From a phage, in sequence record NC_135731.1: a stretch of DNA of 64,000 nucleotides; one strand, given 5' to 3'. The notes under the pieces are model-generated. The model was not told the DNA's origin. It did no database searches and saw nothing but the letters and a program-made list of their open reading frames with translations. Shown here piece by piece: positions 93 through 55,932 of the stretch. The translations under genes were made by a program, and so were the position numbers. Numbering within the stretch: the stretch's first letter is position 1; each line of letters opens with the position of its first letter.

Positions 93-647
93 TTACTCCC
101 TGCTGTCAATATCAAAACTCATTGCAATACGGTATGCCTCTTCTAATGGTAAGAGTCTCCCCCACACATCCCAACCGACATCAAGCTGCCTGCCAAACAA
201 CTGTTGTGTGGTTCCGTGAGCATGACCGAACAGTTGGACTGATCCGTGAGGCTTTCTGTTCCACTTTGCAAACTGGTAATGGCTCATACAGATCAAATTC
301 TTGTTGTGGCGAAGCTCGTAATAATCTACAACCTCATGACCGAACTCTTTCATAATTCTGACAGTCGTTCTTGTGTCATGGTTGCCACGAACAAGAATAA
401 TATGTCCGTTCAACATATTTAGAATATCTGGAAGTAAGTTGTTGATATTCTTATCATTAGTGCACGCAATATCTCCCAGGTGGAACACAGTGTCTGCAGG
501 TGACACAACAGAGTTCCACTCGGCGATGATTCCAGCATTCATACTATCAAGATTGTGATCATACTGAGATCTGTGTTTTTGACATGACTCAAACTCCATG
601 ACCCGCTGGTGGAGAAAGTGTGTGTCGCTTGTTACAAAGTATTTCAT
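93..647 (-). CDS. Calcineurin-like metallophosphoesterase (putative polynucleotide 3'-phosphatase)
   Basis: ORF 93-749 trimmed to internal ATG at 647 (MKYFVTSDTHF); motifs SDTHF, GDIA, GNHD, GHAHG typical of metallophosphoesterases; starts 5 nt after the upstream kinase stop. Confidence 0.7.
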   Translation of the reverse strand: MKYFVTSDTHFLHQRVMEFESCQKHRSQYDHNLDSMNAGIIAEWNSVVSPADTVFHLGDIACTNDKNINNLLPDILNMLNGHIILVRGNHDTRTTVRIMKEFGHEVVDYYELRHNKNLICMSHYQFAKWNRKPHGSVQLFGHAHGTTQQLFGRQLDVGWDVWGRLLPLEEAYRIAMSFDIDSRE

Positions 648-654
648 ACATTCC

Positions 655-1062
655 TCATTTAAGTTTAATGCAGTTTTTAAGTTGGCGTTCCATACGATCC
701 ACAACCTCGTCTGAAGCATGAATGCTTTTATTACCGTGGCGGTTTTCAACCACGATCACGGTATAACTATACCCATAACTGATTGCCATGTCAACATATT
801 CCTGCACATGTTTTTCTTTTGTAAAAGTATTACTTACCACGATACGGTCGTATCCCATACGCATCATATCTTCTACGTTATCTTTGCACCATTTTGCTGC
901 GAGTGTTAATTTACTTGCATCCCAGTTGTAATTGCCGTCATCGTCATACCAGAACATGTCGTTCTCAAAATGTGGATACAGGCCTTCTAAAGATAGCGCA
1001 TTTGCCAGTGTTGATTTGCCAGACCCCGGCAGACCACGCACGATATATAGCATTTTAGACAT
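655..1062 (-). CDS. P-loop polynucleotide 5'-kinase-like protein
   Basis: Walker A GLPGSGKST near N-terminus, resembling T4 Pnk kinase domain; GGAGG RBS 6 nt upstream of ATG at 1062. Confidence 0.65.
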   Translation of the reverse strand: MSKMLYIVRGLPGSGKSTLANALSLEGLYPHFENDMFWYDDDGNYNWDASKLTLAAKWCKDNVEDMMRMGYDRIVVSNTFTKEKHVQEYVDMAISYGYSYTVIVVENRHGNKSIHASDEVVDRMERQLKNCIKLK

Positions 1063-1162
1063 AGCAATCCTCCGTTTTAATTTTAATGATAGTATACCTA
1101 ACTGTTTTGTTAATTTCAAGTGTTGACACTAGGTTATTTGTGTGGCAGGATAGACTGACAAA

Positions 1163-2098
1163 ATGACAAATGAGGAACGTATGATGAAGTATTTTAATGC
1201 AGATGACCTAGTAGACAAAGGTCTTGTAACCAGTCGGTATTATCCAGATCTTGGATTAAAGATCTATAAATATGCCAGAAAAGTATTCTACAACAATCTG
1301 TGGCATTTGTCTCCGCGTTTACTGGAGTGCCGAGGTATTGTTGTTGGCAATGAGGGGAATGTTGTGGCATGGCCTTTCACAAAAGTATTCAACTTAGGAG
1401 AAAACTCCACCAACCTACCGGACAGTAAACTTGTTACTGCGGTAGAGAAAAAGAACGGATTCCTCGGTGTGGTATCATCTCATAAAGGTGAACTGTTGTT
1501 CTCAACAACCGGGTCTCTTGATTCCCCATATTGTAACCTCGCAAAAGAAACCATCATGGAGCAATGTGGTAATTTAGATCTTATCAAGAAGGTTATGGGC
1601 AATGAAAACATGACATTCATGTTTGAAATTTGCCACCCTTCAGATCCGCATATTGTTCAGGAAGATCATGGCGCATATTTGATAGGTTGCAGATATAATG
1701 ATTCTGGAATAATGCTACCAGAAGCAGCTTTAGACGGGATTGCCAAATACCTTGGTGCAAAACGTCCTCACACTGTGCGTGAAATTCCGTTCAGCTATGC
1801 AAAAGAATTAGCTGCAGAAACAAGAGGTGAAGGGTATATGATTCGTAAGCCTTACTACCCTTATGATCTGCAGCTGAAGATCAAGTCTCCATACTATCTG
1901 GCACGGAAGGCTGTAATGAGGGGTAAAGCTTGGAAGATTTGGGATGATGATATCTTTAAACGTGTTGACGAAGAGTTTTACGGTATGGTAAAATTTATTC
2001 GTAGCAACTATACAGAAGATGTGTGGAATTGCTTATTAGAGCAGGAGCGTCGTGAGATACTGGACTACTATTTCCACAACGAGGACTATATGCAATGA
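1163..2098 (+). CDS. RNA ligase, T4 Rnl1 family
   Basis: Strong motif similarity to T4 RnlA: LLECRGIVV, KVFNLGEN, motif I KKNG (KxNG as in Trl1), LFSTTGSLDS. Confidence 0.85.
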   Translation: MTNEERMMKYFNADDLVDKGLVTSRYYPDLGLKIYKYARKVFYNNLWHLSPRLLECRGIVVGNEGNVVAWPFTKVFNLGENSTNLPDSKLVTAVEKKNGFLGVVSSHKGELLFSTTGSLDSPYCNLAKETIMEQCGNLDLIKKVMGNENMTFMFEICHPSDPHIVQEDHGAYLIGCRYNDSGIMLPEAALDGIAKYLGAKRPHTVREIPFSYAKELAAETRGEGYMIRKPYYPYDLQLKIKSPYYLARKAVMRGKAWKIWDDDIFKRVDEEFYGMVKFIRSNYTEDVWNCLLEQERREILDYYFHNEDYMQ

Positions 2099-2445
2099 AG
2101 AAGTGGATTGTGTGGCTTGATGATTTTAGAGATCCGTCAGATTATGGACTCCCAGACGCTCTGTGGCTAAAGAATTCTTCTGAGTTTATGGATTTTCTTA
2201 ATGATAAGAGAAAGCTCTACAGACGCGTATCTGAGTGGTATTTTGACAATGATCTAGGTGAAGTTCTTGAAGGGTACGACTGCTTCTCTGCGCTAGAGGA
2301 GAAACTTGTATTCGGAAAGCCACCACTTATTGACAACGTGATTATTTTCGTGCATACTTCTAATCCATCGGCAGCTCGTAAATTTATGCTTGCTGCTGAC
2401 TCATTCAAGAAGTTTGGAATAGAGATTAAACAAAACATCTACTGA
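2095..2445 (+). CDS. hypothetical protein (116 aa)
   Basis: ORF with ATGA overlap to ligase stop; no recognisable motif. Confidence 0.5.
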   Translation: MKKWIVWLDDFRDPSDYGLPDALWLKNSSEFMDFLNDKRKLYRRVSEWYFDNDLGEVLEGYDCFSALEEKLVFGKPPLIDNVIIFVHTSNPSAARKFMLAADSFKKFGIEIKQNIY

Positions 2446-2453
2446 GGACACTT

Positions 2454-3215
2454 ATGCGACGACTGATTATTATCTCCGGTGCTGGTTTGAGCGCTGAATC
2501 TGGTATCCCCACCTTCCGATCTGGTAGTACAGCAATGTGGGAGAATTTTAGCATCGATGAGGTATGCAACATCCACACCTTTGCCAAGAACTACGACAAG
2601 GTGCACGCATTCTATAATGCACGCCGTGCAGCTTTAGGGGGTGTTGAACCAAATATTGCCCATCTCCGCATCGCAGAATGGTATTCTCGTTGGTCTGGGC
2701 GTGTGATTAATCTTACAACCAACGTAGATGATCTCTTGGAGCGTGCTGGTGTTAAACATGAAGATATCTTACATGTCCATGGGTATTTGCCTGAAATCAC
2801 CTACGAAGATGCTGAAGGTAACGATGTAATTAAAAATATCGGATACACTGAGGTAGATACAGGCAAGTATATCTGGGTTAAGCCTAATGTGGTGTTCTTC
2901 GGAGAAGTAGCTCCGAAGTATACAGACATGTATGACCTGTTGACTTCTCTCACGAGCAATGATATGGTAATCCTGGTAGGTTGTTCTAACACAGTTATTA
3001 ATTTTAACTGGGAATTGTTTCCTGCTACTTGTAAAGGCACAAAACTGCTGATTGTAAACAAGTATGATTCGCAGAGTGCAGATGGAAGTGGCATTTCACG
3101 TAGCGACCTTTATCAATATGAGGATCGCGGGATCCCTGTATGGTTTAACGGTGCTGTTGACGCTTTCTCTGATAAAGCATTTATTGAAACTGTAGAAAAC
3201 TTTATGGAACTGTAA
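2454..3215 (+). CDS. Sir2-family NAD-dependent deacylase / ADP-ribosyltransferase (sirtuin)
   Basis: GAGLSAESGIPTFR NAD-binding motif, catalytic His in HVHG, CobB-like spacing; no zinc-binding Cys pairs. Confidence 0.8.
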   Translation: MRRLIIISGAGLSAESGIPTFRSGSTAMWENFSIDEVCNIHTFAKNYDKVHAFYNARRAALGGVEPNIAHLRIAEWYSRWSGRVINLTTNVDDLLERAGVKHEDILHVHGYLPEITYEDAEGNDVIKNIGYTEVDTGKYIWVKPNVVFFGEVAPKYTDMYDLLTSLTSNDMVILVGCSNTVINFNWELFPATCKGTKLLIVNKYDSQSADGSGISRSDLYQYEDRGIPVWFNGAVDAFSDKAFIETVENFMEL

Positions 3216-3229
3216 GAGGTGACCTTTTA

Positions 3230-3943
3230 ATGCTAAATACTAAACTGATCGACAACCTGGAAAAACTGTCTCAGCCTGAAAACTACCTTTGGTCTGCCAA
3301 CTGGGTGGAAAACTGGAACCGTGTGGCAGCTAAAGTGAAAAAATCATACACACCATTCGAATTACAGCTTAGCTTCATTGAGGAAGAGTTCAATGAGGTT
3401 TTGGAAGAGCTGGAGAAAGGTGATGGTGGAGATCACCTGCTAAAAGAGGCCTGCGATCTTCACGTTGTCACAAGTTATGCAGCCTATCTCGTTAATGACA
3501 ATCACGAAAAGTGGTCAAACCTGTTTGATAATCCACGAGGTCTTAAGTTCAAGATCGGTGAGTTCTATGATACACTGATCGCTGCGAAAAACACATCCAA
3601 GCAAAGATCGTCAGCTTACCGCTTAGCGGAGTTGTCAACAGCTTTGCTGTTCCAGCTTCGCGGCGATGTGTGCGGGATGATGCGTAAGGTTCTCAAATCG
3701 AATGACAGCAAGTTTGCACGGGTAAACCATCTACGGCATTCACACGGTGCCAGTGCAGATATGCCTGCTGAACAACTCATCGAGTTGGAGATTAAAGATC
3801 TTGAGCGTCGTTTTGGTGGTCGCTACGAAGGTTTCGTTGCTAAAGAGGAGTTCTACAACGGCAATAAAGTTATTATATTCCTTGACAGTAAAGGTAAGAT
3901 TATGAAGCCTTCGAGCTTCAAGGATGTAACAGAGTATATTTAA
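3230..3943 (+). CDS. MazG-like nucleotide pyrophosphohydrolase (putative)
   Basis: EEEFNEVLEELEKGD acidic helix resembling MazG EExxE motif; terminator hairpin follows. Confidence 0.45.
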   Translation: MLNTKLIDNLEKLSQPENYLWSANWVENWNRVAAKVKKSYTPFELQLSFIEEEFNEVLEELEKGDGGDHLLKEACDLHVVTSYAAYLVNDNHEKWSNLFDNPRGLKFKIGEFYDTLIAAKNTSKQRSSAYRLAELSTALLFQLRGDVCGMMRKVLKSNDSKFARVNHLRHSHGASADMPAEQLIELEIKDLERRFGGRYEGFVAKEEFYNGNKVIIFLDSKGKIMKPSSFKDVTEYI

Positions 3944-3949
3944 CAACAT

Positions 3950-3975
3950 AGCCGGGATTACCCGGCTTTACTTAT
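3950..3975 (+). terminator. Rho-independent terminator
   Basis: Hairpin AGCCGGG-ATTA-CCCGGCT followed by TTTACTTATT. Confidence 0.55.
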
Positions 3976-4314: not shown

Positions 4315-4570
4315 TCTTGCTAAACCTGTAGAAGCCCACCAGTTTGACGGAAGCTCTTCATCAGTATCTGATCTGCAACGGTGGATTGATACAGGTGTGT
4401 TTACATCGTCACCTGTTCGGACCAGAGATCTTCGTCGCATGTGTGAGCTTGTCGAGCCTTTTGGTAACCTTGTCTTGTACCAGGGAGATTGGCTAGTTGA
4501 CTTTATGGGAGACTGGTTGGTAATGAGTAAAGAAGAGATGTTTAAAATTTTTAAGGAAGAGGACGAGTAA
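4301..4570 (+). CDS. hypothetical protein (89 aa)
   Basis: ORF; stop overlaps next start (ATGA). Confidence 0.45.
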   Translation: MPLFNLAKPVEAHQFDGSSSSVSDLQRWIDTGVFTSSPVRTRDLRRMCELVEPFGNLVLYQGDWLVDFMGDWLVMSKEEMFKIFKEEDE

Positions 4571-5853
4571 TGCATCAGATCAAAACAACACTGTACGCAC
4601 TGAATAAAGATGGCAGCTACCAACAGTGGAAAGTATTCACGGATGGTGATAAGGTTATCGTAGAGTTTGGCAAGCTTGATGGTAAACTGCAATACAAAGA
4701 GACGATCTGCACACCTAAGAACGTGGGTCGTGCCAATGAAACTACAGCTGAGCAACAGGCCGAGCTGGAAGCGATCAGTAAGTGGGAAAAACAAGTCCGT
4801 CTGGGGTATGTTGAAAACATGGAAGATTGCGAGCAGGGTGTTGATCTTTTACCCATGCTGGTGCATGACTACCTGAAGCGTGGCAAGGCACTTAAATTAC
4901 CTTGCTGGATCTTGCGTAAGTTAGATGGCCTTCGTCTGCTTGTTGTTTTCCAAAATGGTGAGCCTAAATTTATTTCCCGTGGTAATAAGTCCTACCCTAT
5001 TCAAGGAAAGCTTTTAGAGCAACTTCGTTCTTTCCATTCTACCACTGGGATTAAACAACTTGATGGGGAACTATACATTCATGGTCTTCCTTTGCAGAAA
5101 ATAGTGTCTCTTGCTAAACGGTGGCGCACACAGGAAGAGATTCAGGCCGAGATCGATAAAGACTATGAGGCAGATAAAAAACGCCGTCATGCCGCAATTA
5201 AGGCAGGCTTATCAACATACAAAAACTTCAACAAGGTAGATATTCCTGTCGATGTTGAGCCTGTTCGTGATGATTTGCGTTACGGTGGGTACTGTAGCTA
5301 CGATCTGGAGTATCACATTTTTGATATTCCTAGCGACAAGGTGTGGTGGGATCCAGAAACAGAGTCTGGACGCTGCAAGGATCTTATGGATGCAGGGGAT
5401 ACCGTTACCACTCTGATGCTTGACCATATCAAGGTTGTTGACGCAGAGCTTGCGTACACAGTTGATCATTGTGAAGAATCTGTTGGTATATTCATGTCCG
5501 AAGGATATGAAGGTACTATCATGCGTAATTTCTGCGGTAAATACGAGTACGGTCAGCGAACATCTGAAGCATTGAAATGGAAAAAGTTCAACGACGCAGA
5601 GGTGAAAGTTATTGACGTTGAGAAAGATAAGAATGACGAAGGTGTTCTTATCTGTGTTGACAAGGAAGGTGTTATTGTTAAAATGAAGATGAAAGGCACG
5701 CACGAGGAGCGTAGCTATGACAGGATGCAGGAAATGATCGGCAAGTTTGTCACCTTCAAATATCAATCAAGGACAGAAGACAACAACTACCAATTCCCTG
5801 TCGGTATCTGCGTCCGAAATGTTAACCCAGATACTTGGGAGGTGCTTGAATGA
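4570..5853 (+). CDS. ATP-dependent DNA ligase (nucleotidyltransferase superfamily)
   Basis: Motif I KLDGLR (KxDG), motif III DGELYIHG, motif IV EGYEGTIMR, motif V KWKKF. Confidence 0.65.
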   Translation: MHQIKTTLYALNKDGSYQQWKVFTDGDKVIVEFGKLDGKLQYKETICTPKNVGRANETTAEQQAELEAISKWEKQVRLGYVENMEDCEQGVDLLPMLVHDYLKRGKALKLPCWILRKLDGLRLLVVFQNGEPKFISRGNKSYPIQGKLLEQLRSFHSTTGIKQLDGELYIHGLPLQKIVSLAKRWRTQEEIQAEIDKDYEADKKRRHAAIKAGLSTYKNFNKVDIPVDVEPVRDDLRYGGYCSYDLEYHIFDIPSDKVWWDPETESGRCKDLMDAGDTVTTLMLDHIKVVDAELAYTVDHCEESVGIFMSEGYEGTIMRNFCGKYEYGQRTSEALKWKKFNDAEVKVIDVEKDKNDEGVLICVDKEGVIVKMKMKGTHEERSYDRMQEMIGKFVTFKYQSRTEDNNYQFPVGICVRNVNPDTWEVLE

Positions 5854-6529: not shown

Positions 6530-7291
6530 ATGACGATACATTTCTTTTTTAATGATCACTACCCTTATTGGTACAAGGATGGTGATCTAATCTTTTGGAA
6601 ACCTGGCTGCAGTAGGAATGGAAATAGGGCTGGACACTACAACAAAAAGACTGGATATTTCCAAGTGTACAATAAGCTGACAAATGTTAAACGTGGCAGA
6701 CATAGGGAAATTTTTGACATGTTTTACGGATGTGTCACAGATACTTGGCATATTGATCATATTATCTCTAAGAAAAATTCTACTAACGGAGTGCCTGTAG
6801 ACAAGATAGAAAACCTTCAAATGTTGAAGCCTTGGGATAACTACTGTAAGAGAGCCTTGGAAAATGTGCAAAGCAATAACACCTCTACAGTGACTGGTGT
6901 GGTATGGCTGAAAAGAGAGGGTAAGTGGAGGGCAAGTAGAAGGATAAATAGGGTAAATGTTAGGTTGGGAGATTTTGACACTTTCGAAGAGGCTAAGTCT
7001 AGGGTTGAATGGTCAATAGCCAACCCGGAAGAGGCTTTAAAGATAGTTCCAAACCCGCACAAGAATAATATCCTGCCAGGTATTGATTGGTCTAAGAAAG
7101 ATACCTGTTGGAGGGCACGAGATAACAAAGGAAGAAACTTAAGGTGCTTCAACGACAGGAAGTGGCTAAACCCCTGGTGGGAGGCAGTTTGTGCAAGAAA
7201 GTCTTGGGAAGTAAACTGTCTCTACGGAGGAATGTCACTAACTGAGTGGAAGTTATCCAGAGGCTATCCAAGACCTTGTGTTGAGGATTGA
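6530..7291 (+). CDS. HNH homing endonuclease with AP2 DNA-binding domain
   Basis: HNH motif region HIDHIISKKNSTNG and AP2-like GVVWLKREGKWRASRRINRVNVRLGDFDTFEEA. Confidence 0.75.
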   Translation: MTIHFFFNDHYPYWYKDGDLIFWKPGCSRNGNRAGHYNKKTGYFQVYNKLTNVKRGRHREIFDMFYGCVTDTWHIDHIISKKNSTNGVPVDKIENLQMLKPWDNYCKRALENVQSNNTSTVTGVVWLKREGKWRASRRINRVNVRLGDFDTFEEAKSRVEWSIANPEEALKIVPNPHKNNILPGIDWSKKDTCWRARDNKGRNLRCFNDRKWLNPWWEAVCARKSWEVNCLYGGMSLTEWKLSRGYPRPCVED

Positions 7292-7570: not shown

Positions 7571-8035
7571 GTGGAAGACGGACGTTTAATGAAGTCTGAA
7601 CGCAGGCTTATTGTGCAACTGATCCCAGAAACAGCTTGGTATAATAACCTCCGAAACGCTGTGAAGAAGAGTGAGTGGGATAAGATCCGTAAGAAGTGCT
7701 ACAGAGAAGCCAACTACACTTGTGAGGTGTGCGGAGGTAAAGGCAGCAAACATCCAGTGGAGTGTCATGAACTTTACACTTTCGAAGAGGGAGTGATCCG
7801 GCTTGTCGGACTGATAGCGTTGTGCCCAGATTGTCACACATCTGTGCATCCTGGGTTAGCAAATATCCGTGGAAAGTATGCTCAGGCAGTTAATCAGTTG
7901 GCTAAGGTGAATAAGATCACCAAGGGTATGGCAGAGGCCTATTACCGAGACTGCTTTGCAGAGTGGCGTGAGCTTAGTAAAGTTCCAGAATGGAAGACTG
8001 ACTTTTCGTGGATAGAGGGTTACCTTGATGGCTAA
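7571..8035 (+). CDS. zinc-binding HNH-like nuclease family protein (putative)
   Basis: CEVCG ... HPVECHELY ... CPDCH pattern; GTG start after GAGGAG RBS, or ATG at 7589. Confidence 0.45.
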   Translation: MEDGRLMKSERRLIVQLIPETAWYNNLRNAVKKSEWDKIRKKCYREANYTCEVCGGKGSKHPVECHELYTFEEGVIRLVGLIALCPDCHTSVHPGLANIRGKYAQAVNQLAKVNKITKGMAEAYYRDCFAEWRELSKVPEWKTDFSWIEGYLDG

Positions 8036-17183: not shown

Positions 17184-19495
17184 TCACTAAGGTAATTAAA
17201 AGCAACGGATGTGAAGTGGCATTCGATCCAGAACGTTTAAATAAGGCAGCTATTTTCGGTGACGACGGTAACGGCAATTGGTCACACATTGCACTGGATG
17301 CATACAAACGACTGTATGATGGATGTACGACCAAAGAAGTTAACCAAGCTATCATAGACTCCTGTGTTAGCCGTAAAGACGAAGCACATTCCCGTATGGC
17401 TGGTCGTGTTCTTATTGGTCAGATTTATAAAGAGGCTTTTGGAGGGTTTACAAAGATCCCTTCCTTACCATCATTTTACAATACCATGGTTGAGAAAGGG
17501 TATTGGGAGGATATGGGTTATAGCTTTACCGAGCTAAATACTTTAGGCGCTGTTATTGACCACAGTAAAGATCTCGGTTACGGCTATGCAGTCCTTAAAC
17601 AGTTTCGCGACAAATACGGGATCAAGGATACTCTTAAAGACACCCTGTTTGAATCTCCCCAGATGATGTTTATGGGGATAGCAATGGCTGTCATGAAGAA
17701 TATGCCGAAAGAACGTCGTATCGACGATGTTGTAAAACTATACAATTATCTGTCCGACTTAAAGATCAATGCTCCGACACCGTACTTAAACGGGCTGCGC
17801 ACAGGTAAGACAGGGTATGCATCTTGTTGTGTAATAAAAGCTGACGATACAGCAAAATCTATTGGTGTGGCACGTGAAGTTGCGTACACGATGACGGTTA
17901 ACCAAGCAGGCATCGGCTACTACTTATCCTCAAGATCTGCAGGCGATGGTGTTCGTGGTAACACTATTAAACATATGGGTAAGATTCCGTATTATCGAGG
18001 TATTGATGCTGGTGTTAAGGAGAACAGACAACAATCACGTGGCGGTTCTGCAACAGTATCATTCCTTGCACTGGACCCGCAGATTGATGAGCTAATCCGT
18101 TTGAGAAACCCTATGACTGTTGCTTCAAAAAGAATCAACACCATGGACTATTCCATCGGTATTAATAGGTCGTTTATCAACCGTGTGGCTAAGAATTTAG
18201 ATTGGATGCTTGTTTCTTATAAGCACGCTCCTCAACTGCATGAGGGTATCTTCACCATGTCTATGGAGGAGTTTGATGCAGAGGTTGATCGTATTGCTAA
18301 AGATGACAGTATTCCTAAAACATGGATCCGAGCCAGAGATCTTGCTGTTGAACTGATCACGCAGCGTACTGAGGTGGGTAGGCTGTATGTATACTGGACA
18401 GATGAGATGAATAGACATACACCTTTTAAAGATGTGATCTATTCAAGTAACCTGTGTGCAGAAATAGCCCTCCCGACAAAAGGCTATTCAGATATGCGTA
18501 ATATCTTCAAGTACGATGCTGATGATGGAGAGGTTGCATTGTGCTTCCTGTCATCCCTTGTAGCTGGAAGGGTTACTCCAGAGGAGTATGAGGATGTTGC
18601 ATACTACACGGTGCTTATGATTGACAATGTTATGGAAATCATGACATATCCGTATGAAAATATGGAAAGCACAGTTAAAAAACGCAGATCCATCGGGGTT
18701 GGCCTTACCAATGTTGCACATTTTATTGCCAGCCACAAGATTACTTACGGATCTCCTGAAAGTAAACAGCTCGTTCACGATCTTGCAGAACTTCACAGCT
18801 ACAGCTTGCATAAGGCAAGTTTACGGTTGGCAAAAGAGCGTGGTGTCTGCGAGTGGATGCATAAAACAAAATATCCAGAAGGTTGGTTACCAATAGACAC
18901 CTATAACAAAGAGGTCGATAGCGTGGTGAAAGATCCTTCTCTTAAACAGGATTGGGAAGGGTTACGTAAAGAAATCATTGAAAATGGTGGGATACGTAAT
19001 AGCGTTCTTGAAGCATATATGCCTAATGAAAGCTCTTCGCTGGCAACAAACACCACTAACGGGGTTTATCCTGTCCGTGAGCACATTATCTTTAAAAAGT
19101 CGCCACAAGGGCAGGTGCTGTTTATCGTTCCTGACTATGATGAGTTGAAAGAGTATTACACTTCGGCTTGGGACGTTGATACTAACGACATGATCGATAT
19201 GTATGCTGTGATTCAAAAATTCACAGGTCAGGCAATCAGCGCGGATTTATACATCGACTACACCAAGTTGAAAGATGGTAAAATTTCAATGAAGGAGCAG
19301 CTAGGGTACCTTATCCGTGCCACTAAATTCGGGATGAAGACATGGTATTATTTAAACTCCAGGGTTGGTGCTGGTGACTCCTTGGCAGAGGAACTTCATG
19401 CCAAGAAACAAGCTGAAGATGAAACCAGAAAGAAATATCCTTTGATTGCAGATAGTTCAGTTGAAGATCCATATTGCGAAAGTTGTGCACTATAA
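17180..19495 (+). CDS. nrdA: Ribonucleotide reductase class Ia large subunit
   Basis: 771 aa, ATP-cone N-terminus (VIKSNGCEVAFDPERLNKA), catalytic Cys/Glu region NLCAEIALP, C-terminal CESCAL; TTG start after GGAGGA. Confidence 0.9.
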   Translation: MITKVIKSNGCEVAFDPERLNKAAIFGDDGNGNWSHIALDAYKRLYDGCTTKEVNQAIIDSCVSRKDEAHSRMAGRVLIGQIYKEAFGGFTKIPSLPSFYNTMVEKGYWEDMGYSFTELNTLGAVIDHSKDLGYGYAVLKQFRDKYGIKDTLKDTLFESPQMMFMGIAMAVMKNMPKERRIDDVVKLYNYLSDLKINAPTPYLNGLRTGKTGYASCCVIKADDTAKSIGVAREVAYTMTVNQAGIGYYLSSRSAGDGVRGNTIKHMGKIPYYRGIDAGVKENRQQSRGGSATVSFLALDPQIDELIRLRNPMTVASKRINTMDYSIGINRSFINRVAKNLDWMLVSYKHAPQLHEGIFTMSMEEFDAEVDRIAKDDSIPKTWIRARDLAVELITQRTEVGRLYVYWTDEMNRHTPFKDVIYSSNLCAEIALPTKGYSDMRNIFKYDADDGEVALCFLSSLVAGRVTPEEYEDVAYYTVLMIDNVMEIMTYPYENMESTVKKRRSIGVGLTNVAHFIASHKITYGSPESKQLVHDLAELHSYSLHKASLRLAKERGVCEWMHKTKYPEGWLPIDTYNKEVDSVVKDPSLKQDWEGLRKEIIENGGIRNSVLEAYMPNESSSLATNTTNGVYPVREHIIFKKSPQGQVLFIVPDYDELKEYYTSAWDVDTNDMIDMYAVIQKFTGQAISADLYIDYTKLKDGKISMKEQLGYLIRATKFGMKTWYYLNSRVGAGDSLAEELHAKKQAEDETRKKYPLIADSSVEDPYCESCAL

Positions 19496-19501
19496 TTTTA
19501 A

Positions 19502-19524
19502 AGGGGCTTCGGCCCCTGTCTTAG
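19502..19524 (+). terminator. hairpin, possible terminator
   Basis: AGGGGC-TTCG-GCCCCT after nrdA; poor T tract. Confidence 0.35.
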
Positions 19525-19534
19525 AGGTAGAATA

Positions 19535-20623
19535 ATGGCTGTATTTAATGCTGAGAACACCGCTCATAAAACTGGTGACTATCCGCTGTTTCTAGGACAG
19601 CAAATGGGTATGTACGACTCTATTAACAAAAAATATCCACAACTGTTCGAACTGTACAAAAAACAAAAAGAACAAGACTGGGCAGAGGATGAAGTGGATT
19701 TGTCGCAATCTATTTCAGATTTTGTAACATGCTCCAAGTCAACTTATGACGTGATGGTGCAAACCTTGATGTGGCAATGGGAGGCTGATAGCGTTGCGGC
19801 AAGATCGATCATCTGCCTCTTTTCACCATTCATCACTAATAGTGAGCTTTTCACTCTATTGATGAAACAGTCGGAGATTGAAGTTCTTCACGCACTAACT
19901 TACTCAGAGATTGTTAGACAATGCCTCCCCAATGCCCGTGAGATTATAGAAGAGATTCAGGAAAACCAAAACGTTCTGAGCAGATCCGGCGTTATTGTCA
20001 AATACATGCAAGAGCTTGAGGTTATTGGTGCAAAATATCGATTGGATCCTTCTAGTGTTGAAGAAGATACTGTGCGGAAATGCATTCTTAGAGCGCTTTT
20101 TGCACTTTTAGCTCTAGAAAGTATTGAGTTTATTGCAAGTTTTGCATGCACTTTCGCAGTAGCTGAGCAAGGTATTTTTGTTCAAGTGGCACAACTTGTT
20201 CAAAAAATTATGCTTGATGAAATGCTGCATTCGAAAGGTGATTTTGCTATCATCGATATCCTGCTTGATGATCCTGCATGGGAGCAAAGCTTCCTTGAGA
20301 TTAAGGGTGAGTTAAAAGAAATTCTTGACGAAGTGCGGACCAAGGAGTACGGTTGGAGTGACTATATTTTCAGCGAAGGAAGAGCGATTATAGGTCTTAA
20401 TTCACCGTTGCTTAAAGAATGGGTTGACTATAACTGCTCACCGATTTATGATTATTACGACATCGACAAAGACTTTGTGCCGCCAACAAAAGACCCGCTA
20501 CCGTTTATGCAGGTGTGGATGAAACCCTCACTGCAACAGACGGCTAACCAGGAAATGTCTAACACAGACTACCGCGTCAACACAACCGTTAACGACGCTG
20601 AAGAAGAAATTTGGGAGTTTTAA
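19535..20623 (+). CDS. nrdB: Ribonucleotide reductase class Ia small subunit
   Basis: 362 aa, di-iron ligand regions (EVLHALTYSEI, ESIEFIASFA) characteristic of NrdB. Confidence 0.85.
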   Translation: MAVFNAENTAHKTGDYPLFLGQQMGMYDSINKKYPQLFELYKKQKEQDWAEDEVDLSQSISDFVTCSKSTYDVMVQTLMWQWEADSVAARSIICLFSPFITNSELFTLLMKQSEIEVLHALTYSEIVRQCLPNAREIIEEIQENQNVLSRSGVIVKYMQELEVIGAKYRLDPSSVEEDTVRKCILRALFALLALESIEFIASFACTFAVAEQGIFVQVAQLVQKIMLDEMLHSKGDFAIIDILLDDPAWEQSFLEIKGELKEILDEVRTKEYGWSDYIFSEGRAIIGLNSPLLKEWVDYNCSPIYDYYDIDKDFVPPTKDPLPFMQVWMKPSLQQTANQEMSNTDYRVNTTVNDAEEEIWEF

Positions 20624-43935: not shown

Positions 43936-44247
43936 TTATACGGTCCGATCATTGGCCTTTGTCCAGGACCTGGCGATCCGTTTCCCGGTCACCTGGAACG
44001 GAGGCTGCATTGTGTGTAATGAGTCCAGAGTAAGGGAGGACCGTTTACGGCGTATCTTCAGGATCGCCAATGTATTGTCCATCTCACGGCCAGGTCCTGG
44101 GCGGTATGGTGTGCCTCCAGCGTTAAGGTTGATGATCTCATGTATTGAGATCCGGCGTTGTTTTGCTTCCGCATCTTTGAAGATAGCCAGCGGAGGCGCT
44201 ATGCGTTGCCGATACCAATCTAAAACGGTTGGCGTAATAGCGATCAT
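43936..44247 (-). CDS. hypothetical protein (103 aa), doubtful
   Basis: ATGA-coupled to upstream gene but 3' half overlaps GC-rich repeat-like DNA. Confidence 0.3.
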   Translation of the reverse strand: MIAITPTVLDWYRQRIAPPLAIFKDAEAKQRRISIHEIINLNAGGTPYRPGPGREMDNTLAILKIRRKRSSLTLDSLHTMQPPFQVTGKRIARSWTKANDRTV

Positions 44248-44435
44248 ATTTTACCCCCTATGTAGTCCGGTCGGTTTTTCTCTGTCATACGCTTAAGCAA
44301 TTCTTGCATGTTGCTTATGGCTTGTAGTGTATCCTCTTCAAGGGATGAATCAAGATAATCAGGATCATTCTTCACCTTGCAATGATTATGATAACGCAGT
44401 ACCGCCAGTACTTTTTTAACTTCTTCCGCTGTCAT
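44244..44435 (-). CDS. hypothetical protein (63 aa)
   Basis: ORF. Confidence 0.4.
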   Translation of the reverse strand: MTAEEVKKVLAVLRYHNHCKVKNDPDYLDSSLEEDTLQAISNMQELLKRMTEKNRPDYIGGKI

Positions 44436-44580
44436 TATCGCGCCTAAAACAATGAGTTAATATATAACACCAGATCGCTGACTACCAGGACAACATTAAT
44501 CAGCACATACCTAACCATAAAGGGAAAGATCGCCAGCATTGCCGCCACGATCCCCATGGTAATAATTATCTTTCTTATGG

Positions 44581-44865
44581 TTAACGGTTCACGTAAGTTT
44601 TCCCGTTCACGGTTATGGGCAGATCCTCCAGGTCTGGATCTTCCTTAAGGTCGCGAGCAAGCTCACCGCACCGGATACCCTCGAATCCGTAGTACTCTGT
44701 TGTGCCGTCCTTAAAAGTTTTAGCGGCAAGGCATAAGCGATAAGTAACCCCGATTTGATTGACGGCATGAATATCCGTTAGATTAACCTCTTTTGCCAGC
44801 TCTTTAGCCATTACAGGCGCATTAAGTCCAACAACCAGGGTAACCACTGCGATCATCTTTTTCAT
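44581..44865 (-). CDS. small secreted protein with signal peptide (94 aa)
   Basis: N-terminal MKKMIAVVTLVVGLNAPVMA signal-like sequence; AAGAGG RBS. Confidence 0.55.
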   Translation of the reverse strand: MKKMIAVVTLVVGLNAPVMAKELAKEVNLTDIHAVNQIGVTYRLCLAAKTFKDGTTEYYGFEGIRCGELARDLKEDPDLEDLPITVNGKTYVNR

Positions 44866-44956
44866 TGTGTCTATCCTCTTTCTGCTACGTTTAAGGCGGC
44901 GGTAACCGCCTGTTTATGCTTTGTTGGTTAATTTTCAGGTATCTGTATAAATTAAA

Positions 44957-45277
44957 CTATGCTGTACGCTCAACTATAACAACGGTTTGGGGGATCTCCC
45001 CTTCCACCACTAGTAAGGCCTTTTTCTGCGTGATAGATATCTTTACCCGTTGCAGCGTGGCGGTGAAGTCTTTCATTTCGTCACGCGGTGTTTTAGTGCA
45101 GTACCAGATCTCAGGCTTGCCGATCTGTAAGTTGCGTAAAAATTCCGTTTTGCCTGTTTTGTTTTTGTAACCGTTATAACCTTTATTGCTTTTCATGGTG
45201 TTTACCTCTTCTTTGTTCCAGGTGGCGGACCATTCCACCGCCTTATGTATTATGCTTTGTAAGATGGCTGTTGTCAA
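44957..45277 (-). CDS. hypothetical lysine-rich protein
   Basis: ORF; start uncertain (internal MKSNKGY possible). Confidence 0.4.
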   Translation of the reverse strand: MTTAILQSIIHKAVEWSATWNKEEVNTMKSNKGYNGYKNKTGKTEFLRNLQIGKPEIWYCTKTPRDEMKDFTATLQRVKISITQKKALLVVEGEIPQTVVIVERTA

Positions 45278-55473: not shown

Positions 55474-55932
55474 TCAACACTCTTTGTATTCCACCACGAT
55501 AATATCTATATCAAAAGTGGCAAGGTTAATAACGTCCTCTACGTGCTCCCACTTCAAACCGCCTATGCCGCACCCGATTTTGGGGACGTAGAATGGTAAA
55601 GTCGATCCACCGAATACCTTATTGACCAGCTCAAAGCCTTTCAGGATTGAGAAATATTCAGCATTAGGCCCTGGGTAGAACTGAGTATACAGATTGATTC
55701 CGTAGACAATACCTCCCGGAGATAAGTGCTCCCATCGGGAGAACGCACCTAGTTTACTTAGGCAACCGTGCCTCGTCTCTTTGTCGGCTGCCAATGCTTG
55801 AGGGAACTCACTGGCAATCTGTTTTGCTATACCCTTACCCATTGTGTGGAAGCAGTTACAACCGTGGATCAGGTGACCAGCACCGCTCTTAAAAAGGGAG
55901 ATTAAATCTCCCTCTACAGTATCAATAATCAC
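55474..55932 (-). CDS. Macro-domain-like protein (putative ADP-ribose binding/processing)
   Basis: HGCNCFHTMGKGIAKQIA and GCGIGG glycine-rich motifs resembling phage macro-domain family. Confidence 0.45.
   Translation of the reverse strand: MIIDTVEGDLISLFKSGAGHLIHGCNCFHTMGKGIAKQIASEFPQALAADKETRHGCLSKLGAFSRWEHLSPGGIVYGINLYTQFYPGPNAEYFSILKGFELVNKVFGGSTLPFYVPKIGCGIGGLKWEHVEDVINLATFDIDIIVVEYKEC

Follow-up and report, generated by a model that had tools for sequence, protein, structure and literature searches.

A phage gene neighborhood in which a sirtuin accompanies RNA repair enzymes was described by Iyer, Burroughs, Anantharaman, and Aravind in 2022 (Viruses 14:1977; PMC9503650, section 3.7.3), who listed as its components a T4-like tRNA ligase, cREC, a nucleotide kinase, MazG and, in part of the cases, a calcineurin-like phosphoesterase. 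Escherichia phage V5 and Proteus phage Mydo are the prototypes of their "type 2" neighborhood. These authors proposed that an ADP-ribosyltransferase (ART) activity of the sirtuin removes 2′-phosphates as KptA/Tpt1 does, and that the phosphoesterases act either in opening the cyclic phosphate or on the ADP-ribose cyclic phosphate that is produced (PMC9503650). Here, we analyzed a 64,000-nucleotide (nt) stretch of DNA from Escherichia phage phiWec196 (Vequintavirus, rV5-like; record NC_135731.1), hereafter the window, in which genes for an RNA ligase, a cREC protein, a sirtuin without zinc-binding cysteines, and a MazG-like protein follow one another. With a probability of roughly 0.55, we regard this block as the Vequintavirus form of the RNA (tRNA) break repair module already described computationally, with the MazG-like gene standing outside the pathway. 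The window agrees with the type 2 neighborhood in the genus of its prototype and in its gene set, and it differs from it in nothing material; its only macro domain gene lies about 52 kb from the sirtuin gene and none is adjacent. The cluster is ordinary for Vequintavirus and is known as a computational prediction.

In the tRNA ligase pathway of fungi and plants, the mechanism of which has been described (PMC6097658, PMC6333775), Trl1 unites an Rnl1-like ligase, a P-loop kinase, and a 2H cyclic phosphodiesterase, and the NAD+-dependent 2′-phosphotransferase Tpt1/KptA acts after it. Compared with the Trl1-Tpt1 pair, the putative cyclic phosphodiesterase of the phage (cREC) has a receiver (REC) fold instead of a 2H fold, its predicted NAD+ enzyme is a Rossmann-fold sirtuin instead of an ART-fold protein, and the phage proteins are separate rather than fused. 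T4 Pnk with Rnl1, directed against PrrC, and Clostridium thermocellum Pnkp (kinase, calcineurin-like phosphoesterase, and ligase) bring kinase, phosphoesterase, and ligase together for tRNA heal-and-seal repair in a like manner. Relative to both, the phage locus has two extra enzymes, cREC and the sirtuin; the phage kinase carries no HAD phosphatase domain, and a separate metallophosphoesterase is encoded.

Anatomy of the ligase-cREC-Sir2-MazG unit

The original prediction, made from the letters of this DNA alone, had placed three co-oriented and tightly packed open reading frames (ORFs) downstream of the RNA ligase gene, and these are present on the plus strand at 2095-2445, 2454-3215, and 3230-3943, with gaps of 8 and 14 nt. 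The features of the window that are discussed here are the following.

93-647, minus strand: metallophosphoesterase gene (the ORF reaches 749; relatives annotate the ATG at 647)
655-1065, minus strand: P-loop (AAA_33) kinase gene
1163-2098, plus strand: Rnl1-type (T4 RnlA family) RNA ligase, first of four genes
2095-2445, plus strand: cREC protein, 116 amino acids (Pfam PF20274)
2454-3215, plus strand: CobB-like (class III) sirtuin, 253 amino acids (Pfam SIR2)
3230-3943, plus strand: all-alpha NTP pyrophosphohydrolase ("MazG-like"), 237 amino acids
3950-3967, plus strand: likely terminator, made up of the GC-rich hairpin AGCCGGG-ATTA-CCCGGCT with a T-rich tail behind it
4570-5853, plus strand: ATP-dependent DNA ligase (Pfam DNA_ligase_A_M and OB_2)
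55474-55932, minus strand: stand-alone macro domain protein, DarG-like, 152 amino acids

The four genes from the RNA ligase to the MazG-like gene, together with the hairpin, form one compact plus-strand unit (1163-3967). The ATG of the cREC gene shares the sequence ATGA with the TGA of the RNA ligase gene, which bears out the coupling noted earlier for this ORF, and GAGGA is found nine bases upstream of that ATG. The GAGGA before the sirtuin ATG is overlapped by the cREC stop codon, and AGAGGTGA stands ahead of the MazG-like ATG; a GAGG-type ribosome-binding site precedes each of these three genes. Seven bases past the MazG-like stop codon starts a perfect GC-rich hairpin, which occurs once in the window (0 expected by chance) and is kept at the same position in two other vequintavirus genomes. 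We take it as the likely terminator of the unit. Counts of sigma-70 promoters and terminators in the window showed no excess over chance, and only this hairpin was retained among the predicted sites, on the strength of where it lies and how it is conserved. The kinase and metallophosphoesterase genes point in the same direction as each other, diverge from the ligase unit, and adjoin it; all five partners (RNA ligase, cREC, kinase, MazG, and phosphoesterase) lie at most 2.4 kb from the sirtuin gene. The window sequence matches phiWec196 with 100% identity, and the 8-kb stretch with the block occurs in 124 phage records. At least 80% of the first 8 kb of the window is covered in each of 110 phage records, nearly all of them from Vequintavirus.

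The RNA ligase matched Pfam RNA_lig_T4_1 (E = 2e-14) and PHROG 562 (1e-65), as well as the NCBIfam T4 RnlA family at 3.8e-10, which is under the cut-off of that model. The kinase, with the Walker A motif GLPGSGKST, matched Pfam AAA_33 (E = 2.3e-10) and PHROG 505, polynucleotide kinase (2.4e-9), and is a candidate polynucleotide 5′-OH kinase. The phosphoesterase gene, 555 nt long in a relative's annotation, encodes a protein that matched Pfam Metallophos_2 (28.8 bits), PHROG 547 phosphoesterase (6e-53), and the Protein Data Bank (PDB) entry 1xm7 (1.6e-10); this calcineurin-like metallophosphoesterase is a candidate 2′,3′-cyclic phosphodiesterase and 3′-phosphatase for RNA ends. Sequence searches of PDB chains with the RNA ligase, the kinase, the cREC protein, and the MazG-like protein gave no match, and structure prediction combined with fold searches was therefore used instead.

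The sirtuin, the cREC protein, and the proposed repair pathway

The sirtuin scored 97.3 bits against Pfam SIR2 (PF02146; cut-off 24, E = 1.4e-27), and its best solved relatives are Escherichia coli CobB (1s5p, 1e-22) and then SIRT5, in keeping with the CobB-like assignment made at the outset. Invariant among the 20 members of its clade (46 to 91% identity) are the GAG segment (G9-A10-G11), S16, F21/R22, Y54-N55-x-R57-R58, N90, D92, H109-G110, and the FFGE loop; the elements GAGxS, FR, Y-x-x-R, TxNxD, the catalytic HG, and FGE are shared with CobB and SIRT5. The claim that zinc-binding cysteines are missing also held, as the zinc-cysteine columns of CobB and Sir2-Af1 align to non-Cys residues in the phage protein and the zinc segment contains 0 or 1 Cys in 20 of the 20 clade members sampled. 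Canonical sirtuins conserve the peptide-staple motif G-T-S-x-x-V-x-P. In the phage clade, this stretch reads G(C/A)SN(Q/T)VINF, and the near-invariant N183 aligns to the V-x-P proline of CobB and Sir2-Af1. The absence of the zinc cysteines, the replacement of V-x-P by V-I-N, and the RNA repair context distinguish the phage clade from CobB and SIRT5. Against the NCBIfam CobB/deacylase models, the protein reached at best 125 bits versus a cut-off of 243, and 105 versus 320 for prot_deacyl_CobB. It scored 13.5 bits against Pfam SIR2_2, below the cut-off of 24.5, and matched none of the PADLOC defense Sir2 models (ThsA, DSR, HerA-Sir2, and others) at E ≤ 0.01; on the basis of PADLOC, a defense-type Sir2 and known defense families were excluded. 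The sirtuin is therefore a distinct, phage-specific branch of the class III sirtuins in which the NAD-cleaving core is intact and the substrate side remodeled.

Such a protein could serve as a conventional CobB-like protein deacylase that removes acetyl or succinyl groups from proteins of the host or the phage, its position in the cluster being unrelated to RNA chemistry. Every catalytic residue of deacylases is invariant, H109 and the class III pair Y54-x-x-R57 among them, and the best relatives, CobB and SIRT5, point the same way. The Y-x-x-R pair binds succinyl or malonyl groups in these two enzymes. On the substrate side, however, the zinc cysteines are all lost and the V-x-P staple is replaced across the clade, and the scores fall far under every NCBIfam CobB cut-off. 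The genomic contexts are divided as well. In Mydo-like phages the Sir2 stop codon overlaps with the start of the DNA ligase gene, and among the partners of Sir2 a DNA ligase is the commonest (15 of 55 loci), both of which would suit a deacylase, as would the acidic nature of the protein, a property of many metabolic enzymes. By contrast, the clade recurs beside RNA end-processing phosphatases in unrelated T5-like genomes, where a Sir2 of the same clade lies about 300 bp from an HAD_SAK_2 "Swiss-army-knife RNA-repair" phosphatase, a context that corresponds to "type 3" of PMC9503650. We consider a conventional deacylase possible but doubtful. Such an enzyme might, for example, retune host metabolism or, as a speculation of ours, strip acyl groups from catalytic lysines of the neighboring RNA and DNA ligases.

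During sirtuin deacylation, the substrate oxygen attacks C1″ as nicotinamide leaves, and the ribose 2″-OH, activated by His, then attacks the electrophilic center to give a 1″,2″-cyclic species. For Tpt1, PMC6097658 and PMC6333775 describe an attack of the phosphate oxygen on C1″ of NAD+, after which the phosphorus center is attacked and a 1″,2″-cyclic species results. Because the two-step mechanisms of sirtuins and Tpt1 run parallel, a Tpt1-like step is chemically plausible for the sirtuin, and the invariant H109 fits either a deacylase or a Tpt1-like activity. The resemblance is one of functional analogy only; the profile of the ART-fold Tpt1/KptA family matched no protein of the cluster in Pfam and NCBIfam scans. 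We put forward a Tpt1-like RNA 2′-phosphate-removing activity of the sirtuin only tentatively and consider it about as likely as a conventional deacylase role.

The 116-amino-acid protein, which had been taken for uncharacterized, proved to carry a described domain. Residues 5 to 98 matched PF20274 (cREC_REC) with a score of 52.3 bits (E = 9e-14), the cut-off being 27; the domain is present in 54 of 54 full-length homologues and is already annotated on this protein in the relative phage 241Ecol014PP. The cREC domain was named by Iyer et al. in 2021 and predicted to open RNA 2′,3′-cyclic phosphates or the cyclic phosphate of an ADP-ribose derivative (PMC7824862), and in 2022 its authors called cREC_REC experimentally uncharacterized (PMC9503650). 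Profile search and structure prediction, which had been suggested as checks on this ORF, agreed on a cREC_REC domain with a receiver fold: the AlphaFold 2 model (predicted local distance difference test [pLDDT], 91.9) displays the beta-alpha receiver pattern with strand 1 at residues 4 to 8 and strand 3 at 45 to 51, and its top Foldseek matches are Sln1 and other receiver domains (probability, 1.0; template modeling score, ~0.6). R12, P14, W24, D51, D53, G55, H87, S89, N90, P91, and K96 are invariant in thirty homologues (down to 37% identity), among which D9 and D10 are almost invariant. In the model, the acidic residues D9/D10 and D51/D53 sit where strands 1 and 3 end. The lysine that usually follows strand 5 of REC domains is missing, and K96 is located in helix 4. 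No histidine kinase was noticed among the cREC neighbors checked. The protein is a predicted metal-independent cyclic-phosphate phosphoesterase with a receiver fold. The contexts of cREC relatives in bacterial genomes were mostly uninformative; one lies near a phosphoesterase in a metagenome-assembled genome of Clostridia. A 354-bp contig of Dyella japonica DSM 16301 (NZ_JPLA01000145.1) encodes cREC residues 25 to 116 at 100% amino acid identity and is probably a vequintavirus contamination of that assembly.

Every protein of the cluster retains the catalytic motifs of its own superfamily. In the proposed pathway, a metal-independent anticodon nuclease of the host would leave 2′,3′-cyclic-phosphate and 5′-OH ends. 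The cyclic phosphate would be opened, or the 3′ block otherwise opened or removed, by cREC and/or the metallophosphoesterase, the 5′-OH would be phosphorylated by the P-loop kinase, and the break would be sealed by the Rnl1-type ligase. Finally, the Cys-less CobB-like sirtuin would strip the residual 2′-phosphate with NAD+ in the manner of Tpt1/KptA, the phosphate oxygen attacking C1″ of NAD+. That the zinc-less sirtuin is an RNA 2′-phosphotransferase that forms, with cREC, the kinase, and the ligase, a nonhomologous replica of the yeast and plant Trl1-Tpt1 pathway is a possibility to which we give limited credence, and the idea of such a replica is a published prediction of 2022 and not original here.

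The window contains no tRNA genes. In the relative OR062943.1, a tRNA cluster (Arg, Ser, Thr, and Met) is located at 44126-44977, about 3 kb beyond the phosphoesterase gene, and the window begins just short of the equivalent position.

The MazG-like protein and its linkage to DNA ligase

The original prediction had also named a MazG-like pyrophosphohydrolase, an assignment that stood as far as the superfamily of all-alpha NTP pyrophosphatases and not in its narrower sense. The protein had no match to Pfam MazG (PF03819), stayed below the cut-off of Pfam PRA-PH (PF01503; 13.9 versus 21.3 bits), and matched PHROG 671 at 1e-21. An exhaustive search placed the family at 82 representative clusters, nearly all matching over the full length, with N30, E53, E56, D76, N158, K161, Y199, K223, and K226 invariant. 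In the family profile, an EExxE...D segment aligns, weakly, with the HisE/MazG metal site. The AlphaFold model (pLDDT, 94.8) is a helical bundle with a small C-terminal beta-hairpin, so that both traits of all-alpha NTP pyrophosphohydrolases, the helical-bundle fold and the EExxE...(E/D)xxD metal-binding signature, are present. The nearest solved folds are dimeric dUTPases, of which the staphylococcal phage Dut (5myd) and the enzymes of Campylobacter jejuni (1w2y) and Leishmania major (2yay) were compared; the phage protein differs from these by the extra C-terminal beta-hairpin with an invariant GK-x-x-KP. Sequence searches gave no match to any dUTPase. "MazG-like" is thus right at the superfamily level, the nearest branch by fold being the dimeric dUTPases.

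The genes around the MazG-like gene were mapped on viral contigs. Locus searches were anchored on cREC, Sir2, and the MazG-like protein in turn, and the neighbors were identified with the window proteins and family profiles; the MazG-like scan was seeded with a closer subset of 18 sequences, since an alignment of 50 sequences was too divergent. Among the 30 loci found with the MazG-like anchor, 29 encode a DNA ligase within 8 kb (median gap, 474 bp), 23 a phosphoesterase, 16 a kinase, 15 an RNA ligase, 13 cREC, and 12 Sir2. Four contigs from the closest non-vequintavirus relatives (L076 to L079) keep the DNA ligase, the MazG-like gene, and the phosphoesterase; RNA ligase, kinase, cREC, and Sir2 are absent from them within ±8 kb, and neither the cREC scan nor the Sir2 scan returned these contigs. 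Three others (L092 to L094) likewise combine the MazG-like gene with a DNA ligase and have no RNA ligase, kinase, cREC, or Sir2 nearby.

The fold, the pairing with DNA ligase, and the persistence without RNA repair partners together make it likely that the MazG-like gene lies outside the NAD pathway. We give about even odds to its product being a dUTPase-like dNTP pyrophosphatase, which we find more credible than a pyrophosphatase for ADP-ribose derivatives, an activity that we consider improbable. This rating is favored further by the fully annotated relative OR062943.1, for which ThyX, ribonucleotide reductases of the aerobic and the anaerobic type, and a dNMP kinase are annotated but neither a dUTPase nor a dCMP deaminase. 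The probable task of the enzyme is to provide dUMP or to keep the dNTP pool clean. The opposite view, implied by Iyer et al. in 2022, is that it belongs to the NAD/RNA pathway. MazG is indeed named as a component of the cluster (PMC9503650), and in vequintaviruses the gene directly follows Sir2, 14 nt away, in the same hairpin-ended unit. This direct adjacency is, however, confined to vequintaviruses; in other phages the gene lies 2 to 3 kb from Sir2, with the DNA ligase directly before it, and phages without Sir2, cREC, or RNA ligase carry it too. Classical MazG genes do occur beside a distant cREC (L016) and near Sir2 (L061 and L072), but MazG-type genes are common in the nucleotide metabolism regions of phages, so that chance proximity is likely. 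With dimeric dUTPases as the nearest folds in addition, membership in the NAD/RNA pathway seems unlikely to us. "MazG" is best approached as a candidate dUTPase-like dNTP pyrophosphatase with a link to DNA ligase and should not be assumed to be part of the NAD pathway. The published picture (PMC9503650) is qualified in this respect, as the gene tracks DNA ligase and its product resembles dimeric dUTPases.

Linkage across phages and competing explanations

Across phages, the tightest neighbors of cREC are RNA ligase and kinase. The 15 loci found with the cREC anchor include 9 with an RNA ligase (median gap, 0) and 9 with a kinase (median gap, 10 nt), besides 7 with Sir2, and the phosphoesterase is the most constant partner (12 of 15), being frequent rather than "occasional" as in PMC9503650. 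Distant cREC proteins also stand near RNA repair genes, in one case with RlaP, an AAA protein, and a phosphoesterase (L017) and in another with Rnl2, Rnl1, and a kinase (L098). The gene order in Mydo-like phages is phosphoesterase, ligase, cREC, kinase, Sir2, and DNA ligase.

Several variants of the locus were observed in passing. On metagenomic phage contigs (L098:1892-8684; also L091, L100, and L103), cREC, an N-terminally extended phosphoesterase, Rnl2- and Rnl1-type ligases, a kinase, a DNA ligase, and a MazG-like gene stand in one row, and these four contigs yielded no Sir2 of this clade. In L063:7079-7564 (also L065 and L068), a 161-amino-acid protein (PHROG 652) is encoded between kinase and Sir2, in the slot that cREC takes in Mydo-like phages. 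An hhalign probability of 1.6% shows that it is no divergent cREC, an identity as NADAR was not supported, and it matched no Pfam or NCBIfam family and only PHROGs of unknown function; it is a candidate for a nonhomologous replacement of cREC. Phi92-size contigs encode a conserved protein of about 134 amino acids (PHROG 839, no Pfam match) between cREC and the phosphoesterase (L009:6450-6851 and L011:6444-6848). One of them further carries Pfam-confirmed genes for a nicotinamide/nicotinate phosphoribosyltransferase (NAMPT) and a phosphoribosyl pyrophosphate (PRPP)-synthetase-like protein beside the cREC cluster (L011:1247-3945). The same genes were recognized by N-terminal similarity beside the cREC cluster in L013:1353-4289 and beside Sir2 in L072:3031-6335, and these positions place NAD salvage beside NAD-using genes.

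The grouping may reflect no functional unit at all, the enzymes acting independently within an inherited "nucleic-acid enzymes" region of early/middle genes in related myoviruses of ~140 to 150 kb. Nearly all cluster loci come from related phage lineages, the region also carries DNA ligase, RNase H, an exonuclease, ribonucleotide reductases, and ThyX, and components have been lost independently of one another. Inherited synteny alone, however, fits poorly with genes that have been reshuffled and yet stay adjacent: the kinase is placed divergently upstream in one arrangement and between cREC and Sir2 in another, and cREC shifts to a position upstream of the phosphoesterase. The translational coupling between genes and the occurrence of cREC with RNA repair genes in distant, unrelated contexts also argue against it, and we hold this explanation to be quite improbable.

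Phage enzymes that process NAD and nucleotides are often counter-defense factors. In line with this, the original prediction had seen in the block a possible extension of the repair cassette into an anti-defense island. The first part stood, as the block does extend an RNA repair cassette, and repair of tRNA cut by host anticodon nucleases itself counts as counter-defense. An island independent of RNA repair, in which the sirtuin and the pyrophosphatase would counter NAD-depleting or nucleotide-signaling defenses by consuming or destroying signals, was not supported. Several counter-defense roles of such enzymes are discussed in PMC9503650, and the NAMPT and PRPP-synthetase-like genes adjoin the cluster or Sir2 in the three contigs mentioned above. 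A sirtuin, however, consumes NAD+ and would thus worsen NAD depletion rather than relieve it. Moreover, no similarity to PADLOC defense Sir2 proteins was found and no known anti-defense family was identified, and the strongest linkages tie cREC to the RNA ligase and the kinase, and the MazG-like gene to DNA ligase. We consider an independent island very unlikely.

A macro-domain-like ORF had been pointed out elsewhere, at 55474-55932. The ORF exists, on the minus strand, and its product scored 26.1 bits against Pfam Macro (cut-off 22), but the gene is not linked to the cluster, from which it lies about 52 kb away. It matched PADLOC DarG (1.4e-12) and NCBIfam antitoxin_DarG (1.9e-11; macro part only and under the cut-off). 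DarG is a DNA ADP-ribosyl glycohydrolase antitoxin. A role as an Appr-1″-phosphatase that would finish a Tpt1-like pathway was set aside because the best matches of the protein are DarG macro domains. A counter to DarT-type DNA ADP-ribosylation is more likely than a partnership with the sirtuin, and the protein probably does not belong to this RNA repair system.

Further observations concern the records rather than the cluster. Nineteen GenBank records named "Campylobacter phage" (e.g., MG065644.1 and MG065690.1), mostly with C. jejuni as the host and most of them unannotated, match the window; the nine among the matches listed are 95 to 96% identical to this vequintavirus over 8 kb. The label looks like mislabeling or contamination and not a true host range. 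In OR062943.1, nrdD (anaerobic ribonucleotide reductase) is annotated as three pieces with an HNH homing endonuclease between them (17239-20168). Two more HNH endonuclease genes of that genome (33244-34749) correspond to the window ORFs 6530-7291 and 7571-8035, which lie a short way downstream of the genes for DNA ligase and endolysin.

A number of points weigh against the repair reading. First, the kinase, metallophosphoesterase, and ligase would by themselves amount to a complete heal-and-seal set, as in C. thermocellum Pnkp, which would leave no obligatory job for cREC or Sir2. Second, Sir2 is the most facultative member of the cluster, which again qualifies the published picture: of the 55 loci found with the Sir2 anchor, about 40, mostly T5-like, have no partner at all, and cREC/ligase/kinase clusters exist either with no Sir2 nearby (L011 and L098) or with Sir2 about 30 kb away, as on phi92-size contigs. 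Third, the sirtuin clade is acidic (median isoelectric point, 5.2; net charge of the window protein, −12), which is unusual for an RNA-binding enzyme, and it has retained the Y-x-x-R motif of CobB and SIRT5, in agreement with an ordinary deacylase. Fourth, as the phages that share the cluster are all related large myoviruses, the conserved order may partly be inherited synteny. With regard to the place of the MazG-like gene, the absence of a dUTPase from OR062943.1 rests on annotation and not on an exhaustive profile scan. Finally, no published experiments on this sirtuin or cluster were found in the literature. Since the proteins of the cluster are small, look soluble, and stem from coliphages that are easy to grow, the reading as a repair module is directly testable.

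If the repair reading is true, two well-known folds would gain two new enzyme activities, sirtuins acquiring a nucleic-acid phosphate as an acceptor and receiver domains a phosphodiesterase role. Common phages of E. coli (rV5-like, Mydo-like, and T5-like) would thereby possess an NAD-dependent means of answering tRNA-cleaving defenses.

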